This document shows, in pieces, positions 1-7,417 of a DNA stretch of 7,417 nucleotides (within the stretch, counting starts at the first letter, position 1; the number at the start of each line of letters is the position of its first letter). Source of the DNA: a virus (Duplodnaviria > Heunggongvirae > Uroviricota > Caudoviricetes); the IMG/VR virus record IMGVR_UViG_2537562019_000013; one strand, written 5' to 3'. Position numbers and translations under genes: made by a program. The notes below the pieces were generated by a model. It was not told the origin of the DNA. It saw only the letters and a program-made list of their open reading frames with translations, and did not search any database.

Positions 1-76
1 TCTGGCGGATGGTGTCCTGTTGCGTCTGCAACAGTGCCCGCAGGCGGGCATTCTCATGAGCAAGTGAGGTGTCCAT
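1..76 (-). CDS. IS66-family transposase TnpC (Orf3), N-terminal 25 codons only; continues beyond window start
   Basis: Reverse complement of 1..76 opens with ATG (76..74) and translates MDTSLAHENARLRALLQTQQDTIRQ, a heptad-like leucine-rich N-terminus typical of IS66 TnpC. It starts 20 bp after the TnpB stop, the usual IS66 tnpB-tnpC spacing. Not in the ORF track because it is truncated by the window edge. Confidence 0.55.
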   Translation of the reverse strand, partial: MDTSLAHENARLRALLQTQQDTIRQ

Positions 77-95
77 ATCCTCACTTTACAACGGG

Positions 96-443
96 TTATA
101 TGCGGATTCCAGCGCGTTCCGTTCGTTTCGGGTGCTTCCAGTTGATACCTTCAAGAAGCATGGATAACTGAGCCGGAGTAAGGTGAACCTTTCCATCGCG
201 GGTGACCGGCCAGACGAAGCGGCCCCGCTCCAGGCGTTTGGTGAAGAGGCACAGTCCGTCACTGTCAGCCCACAGCACTTTTATCTGGTCACCCCGGCGT
301 CCGCGGAAGATGAACAGATGCCCGGAGAACGGGTCATCCTTCAGGACGTTCTGAACTTTTGAGGCCAGGCCGTTAAAGCCATTTCGCATATCGGTGATAC
401 CGGCAACCAGCCAGATACGCGAACCGGCAGGGAGAGATATCAT
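96..443 (-). CDS. tnpB: IS66-family Orf2 / TnpB accessory protein (115 aa)
   Basis: The 115-aa translation (MISLPAGSRIWLVAGITDMRNGFNGLASKV...LFIFRGRRGDQIKVLWADSDGLCLFTKRLERGRF) has the size and conserved motifs of IS66 Orf2. Its start overlaps the upstream ORF's stop in an ATGA arrangement at 443, suggesting translational coupling. Confidence 0.85.
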   Translation of the reverse strand: MISLPAGSRIWLVAGITDMRNGFNGLASKVQNVLKDDPFSGHLFIFRGRRGDQIKVLWADSDGLCLFTKRLERGRFVWPVTRDGKVHLTPAQLSMLLEGINWKHPKRTERAGIRI

Positions 444-1093
444 CAGTGGCTGCTCCCTTTCATTTCGCGGATAAGTGTCTGTAATAACGCCGGTGTCAGT
501 TCACCTTTCAGCCTGAGAGTTCCGGCCGGCAGAACCAGCTCACAGCACAGACTGTCGGGCGGTGTATTTATCTGTTCAGGTATCTGCACTGGTGCCGGGA
601 TTTTATTATCCGGCTCCGGAGTTAACGTCACGGGAAGTAGCGATGTTTCATGTTCGCCGGTCGGCTGCAGGCCGCCGTTACGCCAGAGATGCCGCCAGTT
701 AAAGAGCAGGTTATCGTTGATTCCGTTCTCACGAGCTATTTGTGCGACACAGGCACCGGGTAAAAGAGTTTGCTGAACAAGCCTCCATTTAAACTCCGGT
801 GAAAATCGGTTCCGGCGGATTTTCTCTGTTTTCACAGGCTGAGTCACTGTCGGGGCTGAAGGATATCGCCCAGGGAAAAGAGCCCGGGCCAGTTGCACGC
901 AGGAATATTCTCCGGAAAGAGGCCAGTCAGTGAATACCTGGTGAAATCGCCTCACCAGAGAAAAAATGGCGGTTTTGCTGATACCGGTCTGCGCAGAAAT
1001 GCGCGGGTACGACAGTGACTCGTCAAATCTCAGCTGTAGCACACGCAGGATCAATTCCGGATTGTCTGCCAGTACCGCTTTTCGTGCATTCAT
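443..1093 (-). CDS. IS66-family Orf1 / TnpA-like protein with an N-terminal HTH-like extension (216 aa as drawn; an alternative GTG start at 835 would give about 131 aa)
   Basis: The C-terminal about 130 aa (KIRRNRFSPEFKWRLVQQTLLPGACVAQIARENGINDNLLFNWRHLW...) resembles the IS66 TnpA HTH/leucine-zipper protein. The N-terminal about 86 aa (..SYPRISAQTGISKTAIFSLVRRF..) looks like a second helix-turn-helix. ATG at 1093..1091 is preceded by AAGGGA. Gene order TnpA-TnpB-TnpC on one strand is the IS66 family arrangement. Confidence 0.7.
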   Translation of the reverse strand: MNARKAVLADNPELILRVLQLRFDESLSYPRISAQTGISKTAIFSLVRRFHQVFTDWPLSGEYSCVQLARALFPGRYPSAPTVTQPVKTEKIRRNRFSPEFKWRLVQQTLLPGACVAQIARENGINDNLLFNWRHLWRNGGLQPTGEHETSLLPVTLTPEPDNKIPAPVQIPEQINTPPDSLCCELVLPAGTLRLKGELTPALLQTLIREMKGSSH

Positions 1094-1190
1094 CTTAAAT
1101 GTCCCTTTACTGCGAAAATGGACATTAGTATCGGAAACAGGAAAGGGAGGCGAAAGACGGTTTAAATGAGACGGTTACCCATAAACGATA

Positions 1191-1210
1191 AAACCGCCCG
1201 GAGGCGGTTT
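1191..1210 (-). terminator. Perfect 8-bp stem hairpin (AAACCGCC-CGGA-GGCGGTTT) immediately downstream of gene I; possible intrinsic terminator or attenuator
   Basis: Seen directly: 1191-1198 aaaccgcc, loop cgga, 1203-1210 ggcggttt. On the minus strand it is followed by TTTTATCGTTTAT, a T-rich but interrupted tract. It lies 19 bp after the I stop codon. Confidence 0.35.
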
Positions 1211-1228
1211 CACATAAAACATTTTGCA

Positions 1229-1898
1229 TCAGCGACCAATCACCACAACCTGACCACCATCCCCTTCGTCTGCCGTGCTGATCTCCTGAGAAACCACGCG
1301 TGACCCCACGCGCATTTCACCGTACAGAACCGGCAGAACATTACCCTGGGCAACCATGTTATCCAGGGAGGAGAAATAGGTGTTCTGTTTGCCGTTATCC
1401 GTTGTCTGTGTACGGGGAGTTCTGGCTTTCGGTGCCAGCATCTGCGCCACACCACCGAGCACCATACTGGCACCGAGAGAAAACAGGATGCCGGTCATAC
1501 CACCGGTCCCAATGGCTGCCCCCCATGCTGCAAGGGTGGCTCCGGCGGTAAAGAATGATCCGGCAATGGCGGCAGCCCCCAGGACAATCTGGAATACGCC
1601 ACCTGACTTGGCCCCGGCGACTCTGGGAACAATATGAATCACAGCGCCATCAGGCAGAGTCTCATGTAACTGCGCCGTTAACCCGGACGTGCTGACGTCC
1701 CGCCCGGCAATCCGTACCTGATACCAGCCGTCGCTCAGTTTCTGACGAAACGCCGGAGCTGTGTGGCCAGTGCCCGATGGCTTCAGCCCCCGTTTTCACA
1801 CGAAGGTCGATGCGGCGGCCAAATCGTTGTAAATCCCCGTAAAGGCAGATGCGCGCCATGCCCGGTGACGCCAGAGGGAGTGTGTGCGTCGCTGCCAT
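1229..1898 (-). pseudogene. I: Lambda-like tail tip assembly protein I, split into two frames (N-terminal ORF 1662..1898, C-terminal ORF 1229..1642)
   Basis: The 78-aa ORF starts MAATHTLPLASPGMARICLYGDLQRFGRRIDLRVKTGAEAI, then becomes unrelated sequence. The other frame carries the rest of the protein (..FRQKLSDGWYQVRIAGRDVSTSGLTAQLHETLPDGAVIHIVPRVAGAKSGGVF...VVVIGR). The frames cannot be joined without adding 2 nt between about 1752 and 1778. ATG at 1898 has a GAGAGG RBS and overlaps the K 3' end by about 100 bp, as in lambda. Confidence 0.65.
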
Positions 1899-2539
1899 TT
1901 GTCGGTATACCTCTCTCGTTTGCTCAGTTGTTCAGGAATATGGTGCAGCAGCTCGCCGTCACCACAGTAAATGGCGGCATGATTCGGCACCGATGAACCA
2001 AAACAGCACAGCAGCACATCGCCCGGCTGCGCCGCTGACAACGGCACCTGATACAGCCCTGTGGCCTCCAGATTATCCAGATAGAGATTCTGACCGTTAC
2101 GCCACCAGTCATCCTCGCGATGAAAATCCGGCATCTCAATCCCCGCCAGATGGTAAGCATCCCGGAACAGCGTGTAACAGTCCGTCACCCCGTGCTCAAA
2201 GCGCCGCCCGGAAAGATGTGGCACACAGCGGAACTTGTGAATCGCCCCCCGGCAAACCAGCCACCACGGCAAATCACTCTGCACCTGCAGCCGCCGGTCG
2301 GCCTCACTCAGCCAGGGCAGACCACCGGGGTGGCTGTGGACCAGCGCCACAATCTCACCCTGCATTTCTGCCTGCAGCCAGTCCTCCGGCGACATCCGGA
2401 AATACTCCTCCGGCTCACCGGAGATATTCACGCAGGGAAAATATCTTTCCCCCTCCGGCGTGCTTACCACGAAGCCGCACGACTCCGCTGGCGCACATCG
2501 CCGGGCGTGCGCCAGAATCGCTGATTCTGTCTGTGTCAT
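1796..2539 (-). CDS. K: Lambda-like tail tip assembly protein K (247 aa), MPN/JAMM plus NlpC/P60 domains
   Basis: The translation has a JAMM-type motif (VHSHPGGLPWLSEAD: H-x-H-x7-S-x2-D) and a downstream Cys/His region consistent with NlpC/P60 (..GVTDCYTLF.., ..NHAAIY..). The start ATG at 2539 lies 5 bp after the L stop. Position between L and I matches the lambdoid tail-tip order. Confidence 0.85.
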   Translation of the reverse strand: MTQTESAILAHARRCAPAESCGFVVSTPEGERYFPCVNISGEPEEYFRMSPEDWLQAEMQGEIVALVHSHPGGLPWLSEADRRLQVQSDLPWWLVCRGAIHKFRCVPHLSGRRFEHGVTDCYTLFRDAYHLAGIEMPDFHREDDWWRNGQNLYLDNLEATGLYQVPLSAAQPGDVLLCCFGSSVPNHAAIYCGDGELLHHIPEQLSKRERYTDKWQRRTHSLWRHRAWRASAFTGIYNDLAAASTFV

Positions 2540-2544
2540 GGGAT

Positions 2545-3243
2545 TTACTGCGAAAGTTTGTTAATGGAAAGGAAGCCGCCAAAGTTGCCGACGTTATTGC
2601 GGAACTTACAGCCACTCAGGCATTTGCTGCATTTATCCTTCGTGATATCGGACGTTGTCTGGTCATATTCATCCGCGACCGCCGGACCGTGATAACCGCA
2701 CTCATCGCCGCGATAGGTCCAGGTGCAGGTGTTGGCCAGCATGATACGTCCCGGAAAAACAGCGCCATCTGTTTCCGTCGGCGTGGACAGTACAAAGGAG
2801 GCACTCACCGCGCTCAGTTCGCTGCACTGCTCGATGCGCCAGCGGCTGATCACCTCCTGCTCCGGATCGGCGTCACTGTTTCCGTTAACGAAGTTCACCG
2901 CATCCAGAAAACGGGCGTAAACCTTACGCCGGACCACCGTTCCGCCGACCAGACTCTGCAGATCTTCCGCCATCCCGGTGACCATACCGTACAGGTTAGA
3001 AACCGTCAGCGTGGGGCGCGTACTGGTGCCTTTGCCATTCAGTTCAAAACCACTCCCCTGAATGGGATACGGCTGATACTGTCGCCCCTGCCAGGTGACC
3101 GGCTCACCTTTTTCGTTCTGCTCATTACAGAAAAAATAACGTTCTCCACCGACCTCTGTCAGGTCGATTTCCCAGAGCACCACGCTGGCCGACTGCTCCG
3201 CACGGGTGCATTCATTCAGTGTTTCCTGCCGGATATCCTGCAT
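2545..3243 (-). CDS. L: Lambda-like tail tip assembly protein L (232 aa)
   Basis: 232 aa, the same length as lambda gpL, with a C-terminal cysteine cluster (C-x8-C ... C-x2-C-x3-C) consistent with the Fe-S site reported for gpL. Its ATG overlaps the M stop in an ATGA arrangement at 3243. Confidence 0.85.
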   Translation of the reverse strand: MQDIRQETLNECTRAEQSASVVLWEIDLTEVGGERYFFCNEQNEKGEPVTWQGRQYQPYPIQGSGFELNGKGTSTRPTLTVSNLYGMVTGMAEDLQSLVGGTVVRRKVYARFLDAVNFVNGNSDADPEQEVISRWRIEQCSELSAVSASFVLSTPTETDGAVFPGRIMLANTCTWTYRGDECGYHGPAVADEYDQTTSDITKDKCSKCLSGCKFRNNVGNFGGFLSINKLSQ

Positions 3244-3572
3244 CAGTTCACCACCTGTTCAAACTCTGCGCTGAACTCAACACGCAACATACTGACCCGC
3301 GACGACCATTTTGCGCAGGTCACCTTTATCTGCCGCCACTCATAAGGCGGCGTCCACAGAAAGGCTTTCCAGCCCCCGTGCTCTTCCAGAAACGACTCCA
3401 GTACCGTGGCCTCCTCACGGGGGACAGAAAGCGTCACGCTGTACGTTTTCAGGTTGGCATTCAGCCCGGCAGGCGCTCGCTGAGAATAGCCATCACCAAA
3501 GCGCACCTTTCTTACAGAAGGGACCGAAGCCACATCCATACCGGGTTTCACTTTCCAGCGGAAGGTCTTCAT
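3243..3572 (-). CDS. M: Lambda-like tail tip assembly protein M (109 aa)
   Basis: 109 aa, the same length as lambda gpM, in the conserved H-M-L position. Its start overlaps the stop of the H C-terminal frame in an ATGA arrangement at 3572..3569. Confidence 0.85.
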   Translation of the reverse strand: MKTFRWKVKPGMDVASVPSVRKVRFGDGYSQRAPAGLNANLKTYSVTLSVPREEATVLESFLEEHGGWKAFLWTPPYEWRQIKVTCAKWSSRVSMLRVEFSAEFEQVVN

Positions 3573-6147
3573 CGTCCACCTCCGGAGAACAGGCCACCAT
3601 CACGCATCTGTGTCTGAATTTCATCACGGGCACCCTTGCGGGCCATGTCATACACCGCCTTCAGAGCAGCCGGACCTGGCAGACCATTCGTACCGTCGTT
3701 CTGAATCACCACGTGATTGTTCTGATTAAAATTAATGCCTTCAGCCCGCCGCATCTGCGCCGGACTTCCCGGCACCGCACATAACCACCTTCCGCATAGC
3801 CCCGCATCAGGCGGTACAGGTTGCCGACACCAATCCGGCTGGTTGCCTCCTTCGTGAAGACAAACTCACCACGGTGAACAATCCCCGCTGGCTCATATTT
3901 GCCGCCGGTTCCCGTAAATCCTCCGGTTGCAAAATGGAATTTCGCCGCAGCGGCCTGAATGGCTGTACCGCCTGACGCGGATGCTCCACCACTGGCAGCA
4001 CCGCCAATGGCGCTGCCGATACTCCCGACAATCCCCACCATTGCCTGCTTAAGCAGAATTTCTGTCATCATGGACAGCACGGAACGGGTGAAGCTGCGCC
4101 AGTTCTGCTCACTGCCGATCAGCATCGCCGCCATATTCTGTGCAATACCATCAAAGGTCTGCGTGGCTGCACTTTTTACCTGCGACATACTGTCCGTGGC
4201 GCTCTCTTCCCACTCACTCCAGCCGGACTTCAGGCCTGCCATCCAGCTCCCGCGAAGCTGGTCTTCAGCCGCCCAGGTCTTTTTCTGCTCTGACATGACG
4301 TTATTCAGCGCCAGCGGATTATCGCCATACTGTTCCTTCAGGCGCTGTTCCGTGGCTTCCCGTTCTGCCTGCCGGTCAGTCAGCCCCCGGCTTTTCGCAT
4401 CAATGGCGGCCCGTTTTGCCCGTTGCTGCTGTGCGAATTTATCCGCCTGCTGCGCCAGCGCGTTCAGGCGCTCCTGATACGTAACCTTGTCGCCAAGTGC
4501 AGCCAGCTGGCGTTTGTACTCCAGCGTCTCATCTTTATGCGCCAGCAGGGATTTCTCCTGTGCAGACAGCTGGCGACGTTGCGCCGCCTCCTCCAGTACC
4601 GCGAACTGACTCTCCGCCTTCCACAAATCCCGGCGCTGCTGGCTGATTTTCTCATTCGCTCCGGCATGCTTCTCCAGCGTCCGGAGTTCTGCCTGAAGCG
4701 TCAGCAGGGCAGCATGAGCACTGTCTTCCTGACGATCGCCCGCAGACACCTTCACGCCGGACTGTTTCGGCTTTTTCAGCGTCGCTTCATAATCCTTTTT
4801 CGCCGCCGCCATCAGCGTGTTGTAATCCGCCTGCAGGATTTTCCCGTCTTTCAGTGCCTTGTTCAGTTCTTCCTGACGGGCGGTATATTTCTCCAGCGGC
4901 GTCTGCAGCCGTTCGTAAGCCTTCTGCGCCTCTTCGGTATATTTCAGCCGTGATGCCTCAGACTCGGCCCAGTCCTTTGCTGCCATCTCTCTGGCCTTTT
5001 CAAGATCGGCCTGCAACGTGGCGGCTGAAAGCCCAAGTTGCGCATTCGCTCTGTCCTCCCATGCTCCCCGGAGATTGGCAAGAAATGCTGAGGTTTTACC
5101 GCGCCGGTGGCTCCGGCTCTGATACCACTGCCATTTTTTGTCCGCCTCATCAAAAGCCTTTTCTGCTTTCTCCAGCATTCCCTGGGCAGTGTCCGGGCGA
5201 CCAATATCCAGCACCGAATCCCACATGGATTTGAATGCCCGTGCTGTCCTGTCTGCCCAGGTCTCCAGCGTGCCCATGTTCTCTTTCAGGCGGCGGGTCT
5301 GGTCATCAAACCCTTTCGTTGCGGCTTCGTTCGCCGCCTGCAATGCCCCGGCTTCATCGCCGGAACGCTGCAACTGAGCAACATACGCAATCTGCTCCGC
5401 CGTCACGTTATGGAACTGACGCGCCATCGCCGTCAGCCCCGACGTCGGGTCTGTGGTCAGCTTCCCGAAGGCTTCAGCGACCTTGTCCACCTCCACGCCG
5501 GATGCAGAGGAGAAACGCGCCACACTCTGGCTGATCGCCTCAAACTGCTCACCACCACGCACACCGGCATTCACCAGCGCCGTCAGTGACTCGCTGGTCT
5601 GGTTAAACGTCAGCCCTGCCGCCTGCCCGGCTCTGGACAGGACCAGCATACGATCTGCCGTCAGACCCGACTGATGACCGGAAAGGACCAGCGTTTTGTT
5701 GAAATCGGACAGGGTTGAGTTGCCCTGATACCAGGCATACGCCAGCGCACCGGTCGCCACCGCCAGCGAGGTGGCCCCCACCATCGGCAGGGTGATCGCA
5801 CCGGCAAGCCCCCTGAACATGGGGATCATCCCGCCGAAGGAGTCCTTAACCTGACCCCCCTGTTGCAGCAGGATCAGCCACGGACTTTGCCCGCCTGCAA
5901 GCTGCGTGGCCACGTCGGTGAACTGTGCAGGCAGCATACGCATGGCGGCTTTATACTGCCCGACGGAAATCCCCGCTTTCTGTGCAGCCAGCGCCTGTCG
6001 GCTCAGCGACTGTTCAACGACTGCCGCTGTTTTTTTCGCATCACTTTCCGTACCGGAAAAATGACGCCTGACTCTGGCCATCTGCTCGTCAAATCTGGCC
6101 GCATCCAGACTCAAATCAACGACCAGATCGCCTACCGGTTCAGCCAT
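3569..6147 (-). CDS. H: Lambda-like tail tape measure protein H, frame-disrupted near the 3' end (main ORF 3706..6147, 813 aa; C-terminal 67 codons in another frame at 3569..3775)
   Basis: The N-terminus (MAEPVGDLVVDLSLDAARFDEQMARVRRHF..), long coiled-coil middle and glycine-rich segment are typical of a tape measure protein. After ..LMRGYAEGGYV the main frame becomes an aberrant 30-aa tail (RCREVRRRCGGLKALILIRTITW*). The true C-terminus (..NFNQNNHVVIQNDGTNGLPGPAALKAVYDMARKGARDEIQTQMRDGGLFSGGGR) is in a frame offset by 1 nt and ends exactly at the M start. Confidence 0.8.
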
Positions 6148-6978
6148 ACCGGACTCCTCCTGCGATCCCTTCTGATACTGTCATCAGCATTACGTCATCC
6201 TCCGTCATGTCCGCCACATCCGGGGAAGCGGGGATAACTTCATTCCCGTCCGGGCCAAAGCGGACGCCTCCGGCAAGCCCTGCCGCTTTCTGCATCAGCA
6301 CATCATCTTCAGGCTCTTCGTCAGCCTCACGCCGGTTCAGCAGACTGAAATCCAGCGGATGCATATCCGGATCGCTGAAAAACAGGCTGAGTACGGTGTA
6401 CGTCAGCCCGGAAAAGTGCATATCCAGCAGAACATCATGAAAATAATGGGTACTGTAAAAGCGGTGCCAGTCGGCATACTCCGTGGATGACATCCCGGCA
6501 AGCATGGCACGCCAGTCGGGTCGCCCCATCTCTCGCGCCAGTTTCAGGGCAAAACTCAGCTCACCATCGAACACTTTCCCGCAGAAACAGGCTCTGCAGG
6601 CCCGGCGTCCTCTGTCTGTTCAGGAGCATCATTCACCACAAACTCATACATACCGGACAGCCGGTACACCACGTTTTCAGCATGAGAAATTGCCTCCGTG
6701 GGCCAGGTGGTAAGCACTTCCTGCTCAATCTGTTTAACGGCTTCATTCATGGAAGGCAGCTTTGTCTTCTTCGGATGGTTATGCCACAGGGACATCGCCA
6801 CCAGAAACGCGCCGGTTCTGATGGCGTCTTCCACAGTAAACTTCCGGTTGCTGTCTGACTCCGCCTGTTCTGCCTGCCGTTTCATCAGGGCGAGATGCTC
6901 AATACGCTGCAGGGCTGACAGTTCAGAAAGCGTGACGGTCACACCGTTATGTTCAAATGATTCGGTTTTCAGGAACAT
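6140..6978 (-). CDS. T: Tail assembly chaperone G-T fusion made by programmed -1 ribosomal frameshift (T portion at 6140..6574)
   Basis: The -1 frame after the slippery site reads K-VFDGELSFALKLAREMGRPDWRAMLAGMSS.., which is the T ORF in the track. That ORF has no proper start of its own; its leading M is a GTG inside G. It overlaps the H start by 8 nt. This is the conserved G/GT arrangement of lambdoid and many other tailed phages. Confidence 0.8.
6556..6978 (-). CDS. G: Lambda-like tail assembly chaperone G (140 aa)
   Basis: 140 aa, ending ..PVSAGKCSMVS, with the slippery heptamer G GGA AAG in frame near its 3' end. ATG at 6978 is preceded by a GGAGA RBS, 15 bp after the V stop. Confidence 0.85.
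   Translation of the reverse strand: MFLKTESFEHNGVTVTLSELSALQRIEHLALMKRQAEQAESDSNRKFTVEDAIRTGAFLVAMSLWHNHPKKTKLPSMNEAVKQIEQEVLTTWPTEAISHAENVVYRLSGMYEFVVNDAPEQTEDAGPAEPVSAGKCSMVS
6574..6580 (-). promoter_or_regulatory. Programmed -1 frameshift slippery heptamer G GGA AAG (G-T recoding site)
   Basis: Plus-strand ctttccc at 6574-6580 is GGGAAAG on the minus strand, with GGA and AAG as in-frame codons of G (..A-G-K-C..). A -1 slip enters the T frame. Confidence 0.8.
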
Positions 6979-6993
6979 CGCTGACTCTCCGGA

Positions 6994-7417
6994 TTAACTG
7001 GCGGTGACGTTGATTTCTGCAACCGCAGCAAGTTCACCATTACCGGATACGACCGGAATGTTGACCTTGCCTGCAGCAACACCTTTCACGGTGATGGTCA
7101 TACCACTGACCGACACGGTGGCTTTTGTTTTATCCGCTGACACCGCACGGAAGCTCTTGTCGGTTGCGCCTTCCGGCTGGAATGCCACGGTCAGCGTGGT
7201 GCTCTTCCCTTTCACTACGGAAGCGCTGGCTGGCGTCACGGTCATACCGGTTGCCGCTGTTACCGTGCTGCGATCTTCTGCCATCGACGGACGTCCCACG
7301 TTGGTGACTTTCACCGTGCGGGTGATCACTTCCTTCGCCGTCACCGCCTTACCGATACTGCTGACCCAGCCGCGGAACACATCGACCGTGCCGTTCGGGA
7401 AGCGGATTTTATAGGCA
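6994..7417 (-). CDS. V: Lambda-like major tail protein V, C-terminal part including the Ig-like domain; 5' end lies beyond the window
   Basis: The frame is open from the window edge (..[83 protein letters not shown]...NVTAS*). The T/V/S-rich C-terminus looks like the Big_2-type Ig-like domain of gpV. The M at 7380 in the track is an internal GTG. Stop TAA at 6996..6994. Confidence 0.8.

Follow-up and report, generated by a model that had tools for sequence, protein, structure and literature searches.

Can a phage tail module whose reading frames are broken by small insertions and deletions (indels) be read as a decaying prophage, or do such breaks reflect the way in which the sequence was assembled? 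The question arises for the stretch of DNA analysed here, the IMG/VR record IMGVR_UViG_2537562019_000013 of 7,417 nucleotides (nt; hereafter the window), which carries a lambda-like tail module in which the tail assembly gene I and the tape measure gene H are both interrupted. A preliminary description of this sequence had left two possibilities side by side, namely (i) homopolymer-biased sequencing or polishing errors, or (ii) genuine slipped-strand decay in a prophage already crippled by an insertion sequence (IS). Our analysis supports the artefact branch, with a mechanism other than the one proposed, as the evidence favours a blended consensus of two paralogous tail modules, here called X and Y. 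We consider it very likely that the frame-breaking indels in I and H arose from the collapse of these paralogs into one contig, and the window most likely does not reproduce any single genomic locus faithfully.

Results

As deposited, gene I (1229..1799, minus strand; intact homologues of 573 nt) is split into open reading frames (ORFs) at 1229-1642 and 1662-1898, and its start is either a GTG at 1799 or a lambda-style ATG at 1898. Gene H (3569..6147, minus strand) appears as an ORF of 813 amino acids (aa; 3706-6147) followed by a tail ORF of 61 or 68 aa (3569-3754 or 3569-3775). Alignment to intact relatives from finished Escherichia coli genomes places two 1-nt deletions in I, one at 1755..1756 (GGG to GG on the plus strand, CCC to CC on the coding strand) and one at 1776 (GG to G on the plus strand), which are spaced 21 nt apart and, at a net of -2, do not compensate each other. 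The lesion in H (3766..3778) is compound and combines the gain of one C (CC to CCC, 3766-3768) with the loss of two (CCC to C, 3778) within 12 nt, net -1. Once these indels are undone, both genes are free of further stop codons; I then encodes 190 or 223 aa, depending on the start, and H encodes 859 aa.

The preliminary description had counted three losses of one base, each from a G/C run of 2-3 nt. The indels are present and the runs are of that length, but there are four indel differences at three sites, and the H lesion is not a simple loss. The short-run context is, moreover, weakly informative because 28% of all bases sit in G/C runs of at least 2 nt, and none of the 22 runs of at least 5 nt was hit. 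The genuinely non-random property of the four indels is that they form two tight pairs (P ~1.5e-4 under independence). A quasi-palindrome-templated mutation at the H lesion was also considered and rejected, as the inserted G lowers the symmetry of GCCGGA/TCCGGC.

The window is the whole of contig APXB01000377.1 (7,417 bp) from GCA_000356365.2, the draft genome of E. coli 179550. The truncated 813-aa H protein is ENA58053.1 of this strain and has exactly one carrier contig. Strain 179550 is a CS7 enterotoxigenic E. coli (ETEC) from Bangladesh (PMC6301781; Table S1 of PMC5469772) with reads under SRR446711, and according to the source study the draft was produced from 100-bp Illumina HiSeq 2000 reads with Celera Assembler; its authors used SPAdes 3.6 as well. 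The draft dates from 2013, and Celera Assembler is of the overlap-layout-consensus type. The label "MLST untypable" (multilocus sequence typing) that the source study gives to the strain was examined as a sign of genome-wide error and is uninformative, as the table uses it 24 times and gives it to both of the CS7 strains shown.

This provenance bears directly on the idea that a run-miscounting platform, or a polishing step, introduced errors throughout the genome. In its favour, all four indels lie in G/C runs, and single-base indels that are not accompanied by substitutions are error-like. However, reads from 454, Ion or nanopore instruments are absent from the data and a polishing step is not reported; with Illumina HiSeq 2000 as the platform, a homopolymer-miscounting technology is therefore not involved. 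Neither the chemistry nor errors in long runs could be found: only runs of 2-3 nt were affected, long homopolymers are untouched, and the -2/+1 change in H is not a miscount by one base. Furthermore, four errors per 6.2 kb would mean thousands of errors if extended over the genome. From our point of view, this explanation is thus highly improbable.

A search with the junction between the IS and gene I identified three finished genomes of CS7-type ETEC that share it, namely O114:H49 strain 90-9280, ETEC-2264 (Dhaka) and L3_CS7_E2980. Their locus X reads V-G-T-H-M-L-K-I-IS66(tnpA,B,C)-J-lom-stf, and in all three the annotation shows intact genes for H (853 aa), I (190 aa) and J, with lom and stf intact downstream. 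The same three genomes contain a second, likewise intact paralogous tail module, Y (in NZ_CP023349.1, for example, X and Y lie at 616921-634160 and 1770852-1782092). Both are tail modules of lambdoid prophages and share 94.5% identity. The three genomes have the same Y sequence throughout, and 15 sites at most distinguish their X copies. Between X of 90-9280 and that of ETEC-2264 and E2980, nine of the 12-15 differences cluster in gene V (window-equivalent 7138-7300), which suggests a patch of natural recombination within the lineage.

The finished genomes also clarify the position of the IS66-family element. In 90-9280 it is flanked by the 8-bp duplication GTTTATGG, the second copy of which lies 10 nt upstream of the ATG of J. 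The element thus occupies the spacer between I and J, and with J, lom and stf intact, the view of a prophage crippled by the IS insertion turned out to be overstated.

When the window is compared with X and Y at their 350 informative sites, it carries the X allele at 137 and the Y allele at 213, arranged in 27 blocks with 26 switches. The contig begins at the X-specific junction of I and IS66 and then alternates between the two; within K, for instance, X alleles (1961-2255) give way to Y (2302-2373) and return to X from 2384 onward. Apart from the lesion columns, only two single-nucleotide polymorphisms (SNPs), at 3865 and 6392, match neither module. The finished genomes have four matching places, and the two SNPs could be true SNPs of the strain, alleles of a third paralogue or errors. 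Gene I holds no unexplained substitution. Against a local panel of 255 loci the window had shown one private substitution (4118) besides four private indels; this substitution is the Y allele. Two further candidates for unusual variation were dismissed: a patch of seven SNPs in K is no private mutation, having 100% matches in hundreds of genomes, and a unique switch between two alleles at the 3' end of H, taken for a rare natural allele, is a switch from X to Y.

Lambdoid polymorphism is largely bi-allelic, and any module will resemble an X/Y mosaic to some degree, for which reason a control was needed. Eighteen unrelated full-length modules carried 18-193 substitutions foreign to X and Y, with the exception of relatives of the pure Y type, which carried 3-7. 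Other genomes contain unmixed haplotypes of either type, pure X in L178 (99.65% identity over 6.26 kb) and pure Y in L085 (99.92% over the same length), and the mixed haplotype was found in this draft contig only. Alternating alleles with almost none foreign to the two copies are what is expected of a chimeric consensus.

That strain 179550 itself carries both X and Y can be inferred because it shares the IS66 junction, belongs to the CS7 ETEC from Bangladesh and has a contig of matching allele content; direct observation of co-residence comes from the three finished genomes, which belong to the same ETEC type. As in these genomes, H and I are most likely intact in both modules of strain 179550.

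Most of the indels are placed where the two copies differ: for three of the four, an X/Y difference is no more than 2 nt away, as compared with 16.4% of columns overall. The H lesion falls in a stretch of strong divergence between X and Y, which differ in length at exactly the lesion columns: X reads TT-CCGG..CCGCCCACAT, Y reads TGCCCGG..CCG---ACAT and the window reads TTCCCGG..CCGC--ACAT. The length states of the window are thus between those of X and Y at both columns, and the flanking substitutions are all of the X type. In I, the deletion at 1776 adjoins an X/Y SNP at 1774. The base lost at 1755-1756 is present in 151 of 155 panel sequences and in both X and Y.

We therefore propose the following course of events. 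Reads of 100 bp from two co-resident modules, X (with IS66 between I and J) and Y, would have been laid out together. X and Y differ at three or fewer positions in 68% of 100-nt windows and at six or fewer in 84%, which is within the ordinary error tolerance of an overlap assembler, and such an assembler could therefore merge reads of both copies. The consensus would then hop from one copy to the other, giving rise to the 26 switches, and bases may have been dropped or added where the placement of gaps was ambiguous, that is, beside the X/Y SNP in I and at the X/Y length differences in H. The indels themselves would accordingly be products of the assembler's consensus step.

The same patchwork could also have formed in the cell, by gene conversion between the two prophages of strain 179550. 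A long X/Y heteroduplex would have been repaired patchily into a fine-scale hybrid module, with the indels left as by-products or scars. The almost exclusive presence of X and Y alleles agrees with this scenario, as do some switches (3-12 nt apart) that are too close for simple overlap hopping, and the clustered V differences between finished X copies indicate that some exchange occurs in the lineage. Yet for 26 switches to arise with only two new SNPs, numerous conversion tracts would have had to form within a brief period, while Y is identical and X nearly so across three independent finished genomes. Repair of a 3-nt loop, moreover, would keep or remove all three bases and not leave one behind, and homeologous recombination at 5.5% divergence is strongly suppressed by mismatch repair in E. 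coli. Gene conversion is hence a very unlikely source of the patchwork; were it nevertheless true, the hybrid would be a snapshot of conversion between prophages within a clonal ETEC lineage.

The lesions were seen on no other contig. Across 5,426 finished E. coli genomes, 7,307 places homologous to the I segment and 1,897 homologous to the H segment were compared, and not one has the indels; the best matches of the lesion segments are identical save for the gaps. The exact lesion strings of I and H had no match in viral and metagenome contigs, where the intact strings, as positive controls, match at least 120 viral contigs each. The I string also had no match in the GTDB-representative genomes. 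An exact look-up among 15 billion proteins found the truncated H protein on this contig and nowhere else. Exact look-ups and contig retrieval with the I fragment, K, the truncated H and the H tail returned no other assembly with the same lesions, and neither a sister isolate nor a Logan assembly of SRR446711 came to light.

Among the proteins of the module, the repaired I is the commonest I allele (more than 1000 contigs), and M, G, T and L are common alleles too. The K protein (WP_001388824.1/ENA58049.1), by contrast, is known solely from this contig because it is an X/Y chimera. Both this protein and the truncated H (ENA58053.1) have probably spread into RefSeq/nr as chimeras or artefacts.

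The same 137-aa fragment of I is encoded by other contigs, in which the gene either carries other lesions or is truncated by the contig edge. Two of them (L009 and L010) have CAG to TAG nonsense changes in I at different sites, and in L013 one base is deleted from a C5 run; real or apparent I pseudogenes are thus recurrent in other assemblies. The best full-length match in a finished genome (L001; NZ_AP027599.1, 3893-6472) has an internal stop in its own tape measure gene, which the annotation lists as a pseudogene. Two draft-derived modules of the X type (L178, IMGVR_UViG_2529292725_000005, and L249, IMGVR_UViG_2529292837_000006) are identical over ~3.8 kb save for three private single-base deletions in gene L (window-equivalent 2770, 2833 and 2961), all outside homopolymers. 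Zero substitutions against three indels is an error-like spectrum, which suggests that similar consensus deletions in this module occur in other draft assemblies. L045, too, has two 1-nt deletions, spaced by 39 nt.

These data allow the decay of the locus to be weighed, i.e. that H and I of one prophage in strain 179550 acquired real and very recent frameshifts, by slippage or as complex indels, in an early stage of decay with J cut off by IS66. Several observations speak for it. The IS66 insertion is real, as evidenced by its target-site duplication, and common to the finished genomes, so that selection on the tail genes could be relaxed. The I lesions of L009, L010 and L013 are independent and real-looking, a 1-nt deletion affects this G-run of H in one sequence of the panel as well, and an Illumina consensus is generally accurate. 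Against this, the orthologous H and I are intact at the IS66 locus in all three finished genomes of the lineage and the lesions recur neither there nor in independent genomes. In E. coli, natural substitutions outnumber indels by ~10-12:1 and indel rates climb with repeat length (PMC6330053). The window has four indels and at most two unexplained substitutions, a spectrum that is not neutral, and the indels spared the longer runs, whereas 6 of 15 rare single-base indels in the panel fall in runs of at least 4 nt, to which few of the bases belong. The panel has ~0.16 clean rare frameshifting indels per module. On account of this rate, the run lengths and the natural ratio, the window is an outlier in both indel rate and sequence context. 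The pairwise clustering of the indels is likewise unexpected for decay, and a contig that mixes two loci is not readable as one gene copy. Slipped-strand decay, the second of the two options raised at the outset, thus found no support in the finished genomes or in the mutational spectrum, and we regard real frameshifts as unlikely, if still the least improbable of the alternatives considered here.

Finally, the breaks could be programmed, as the module already contains one site of -1 ribosomal frameshifting, that of G-T. For H or I such recoding is effectively refuted: the frame breaks are not conserved and are shared by no relative among thousands, no slippery heptamer is present at the lesion sites, and I would need two shifts 21 nt apart. 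The chance that recoding applies here is close to nil.

Gene content of the window

According to the ORF calls, every tail and IS gene lies on the minus strand. The 3' part of the major tail gene V (6994..7417), with a Big_2 domain, is cut by the contig end and is followed in the direction of transcription by gene G (6556..6978; tail assembly chaperone) and the T reading frame (6140..6574). The latter is expressed as G-T via -1 frameshifting, for which the slippery heptamer G GGA AAG (6580-6574), the stop of G at 6556 and the overlapping T frame are all in place; the slippery site is thus preserved, as had been stated before. Downstream of H lie the minor tail protein genes M (3243..3572) and L (2545..3243) and gene K (1796..2539), which encodes a JAB/MPN and NlpC/P60 peptidase. 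The earlier statement that K, L, M, G, T and V are intact applies to the open frames of K, L, M, G and T, although K is a chimera of X and Y; V is partial.

The Pfam families follow the order Phage_TTP_12/Big_2, Phage_TAC_2, Phage_tail_T, TMP_2 with Tape_meas_lam_C, Phage_min_tail, Phage_tail_L and Prok-JAB with NLPC_P60. Together with the gene order V-G-T-H-M-L-K-I, and in agreement with annotated homologues, they identify a lambda-like siphovirus tail module.

Beyond gene I, the spacer towards J contains a perfect GC-rich hairpin, AAACCGCC-TCCG-GGCGGTTT (1191..1210, minus strand), which is kept in relatives. With the T-rich sequence that follows it, the hairpin looks terminator-like and lies shortly before the IS66 target site. 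The window has a single copy of the 8-bp duplication, at 1179..1186 (minus strand); the same octamer stands at both ends of the IS in 90-9280. The partial IS66-family element occupies 1..1178 (minus strand; Pfam HTH_Tnp_1 and TnpB_IS66) and comprises the terminal inverted repeat GTAACCG (1178-1172), tnpA (443-1093, 216 aa), tnpB (96-443, 115 aa) and the start of tnpC at ~76, which runs off the contig end; tnpA, tnpB and tnpC are annotated in the finished orthologous locus. The assignment to IS66 rests on tnpA, tnpB and the element end in the window and on the full element with its duplication in 90-9280, where the junction is identical. As the window ends inside the IS, J is not part of it; in the finished orthologous locus, J directly follows the element.

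The IS66 part of the window differs at 16 sites from the IS of locus X in the finished genomes. Nine of these match a plasmid-borne IS66 copy of ETEC-2264, a pattern that counts in favour of a blended contig, and the other seven, which match neither, presumably stem from further copies of the IS.

Discussion

A blended consensus of X and Y brings together the allele pattern of the contig, the placement of most indels and the intact orthologues in finished genomes. Several points nevertheless weigh against it. The blending was deduced from the consensus and its finished relatives, as was the presence of X and Y in strain 179550. Four switches between X and Y occur within 3-12 nt (1818/1830, 1958/1961, 2373/2384 and 3671/3678), for which simple overlap hopping is not a ready explanation, and the clean switch from X to Y at 3671-3678 occurs inside a highly divergent stretch with an identity of only 6 nt. 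The deletion at 1755-1756 in I has no X/Y difference closer than 18 nt. An Illumina consensus is usually accurate, with published small-indel errors of ~4-25 per ~3 Mb (for assemblers other than Celera), and the error must therefore be strictly local to this repeat. Lastly, the mosaicism of the contig is no outlier against the population panel (4.0 segments per kb as compared with a median of 2.4, with 28 of 91 panel sequences at or above its value). This last test is without power because lambdoid polymorphism is largely bi-allelic, and diagnostic value lies solely in comparing the contig with X and Y from its own lineage, combined with the control for foreign alleles.

In many respects the window resembles collapsed or chimeric repeat contigs as they occur in short-read drafts. 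It is a short contig bounded by multi-copy sequence, with IS66 on one side and V on the other, its alleles alternate between two paralogues of the finished lineage, its K and truncated H are found in no other assembly, and its indels sit where the copies differ. The case differs from such contigs in its line of evidence, which comes from the consensus and finished relatives, the usual direct signs being double depth, mixed columns or discordant read pairs.

Decaying lambdoid prophages of E. coli and Shigella offer the other obvious comparison. Broken tail genes do occur in them, as exemplified by the TAG codons in I of L009 and L010 and the internal stop in H of LR-71-1. Their lesions are, however, single and often involve longer runs or nonsense codons, whereas those of the window are paired, lie in runs of 2-3 nt and are present in one draft contig while absent from the finished orthologue.

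The underlying module itself follows the V-G-T-H-M-L-K-I-J arrangement of phage lambda in gene order, Pfam families, the slippery sequence G GGA AAG and the C-terminal block of H, and the repaired I (in its 223-aa form) and H can be aligned with lambda-type proteins over their full length. It departs from lambda in having an IS66-family element between I and J, a variable region of H of a non-lambda allele type (3678-3829) and, as deposited, broken frames in H and I. The element, in turn, is typical of the IS66 family in its tnpA, tnpB and tnpC start, its terminal repeat (GTAACCG/…CGCTTAC) and the 8-bp duplication in the finished orthologue; only ~1.18 kb of it lies in the window, however, and this part follows a plasmid copy at nine sites.

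Overall, the indels are most likely not a biological feature, and their biological weight is small. The finding rather calls for caution in practice, as short draft contigs from E. coli strains with multiple prophages can blend paralogous copies and thereby place both false "pseudogenes" and seemingly "intact" chimeric proteins into databases, the truncated H and the K protein of this contig being examples. The locus that underlies the window is an ordinary lambda-type tail module with IS66 between I and J, which is already known in intact form from finished ETEC genomes. To name it a fossil, or to score the decay of its prophage from these frame breaks, would be an error.

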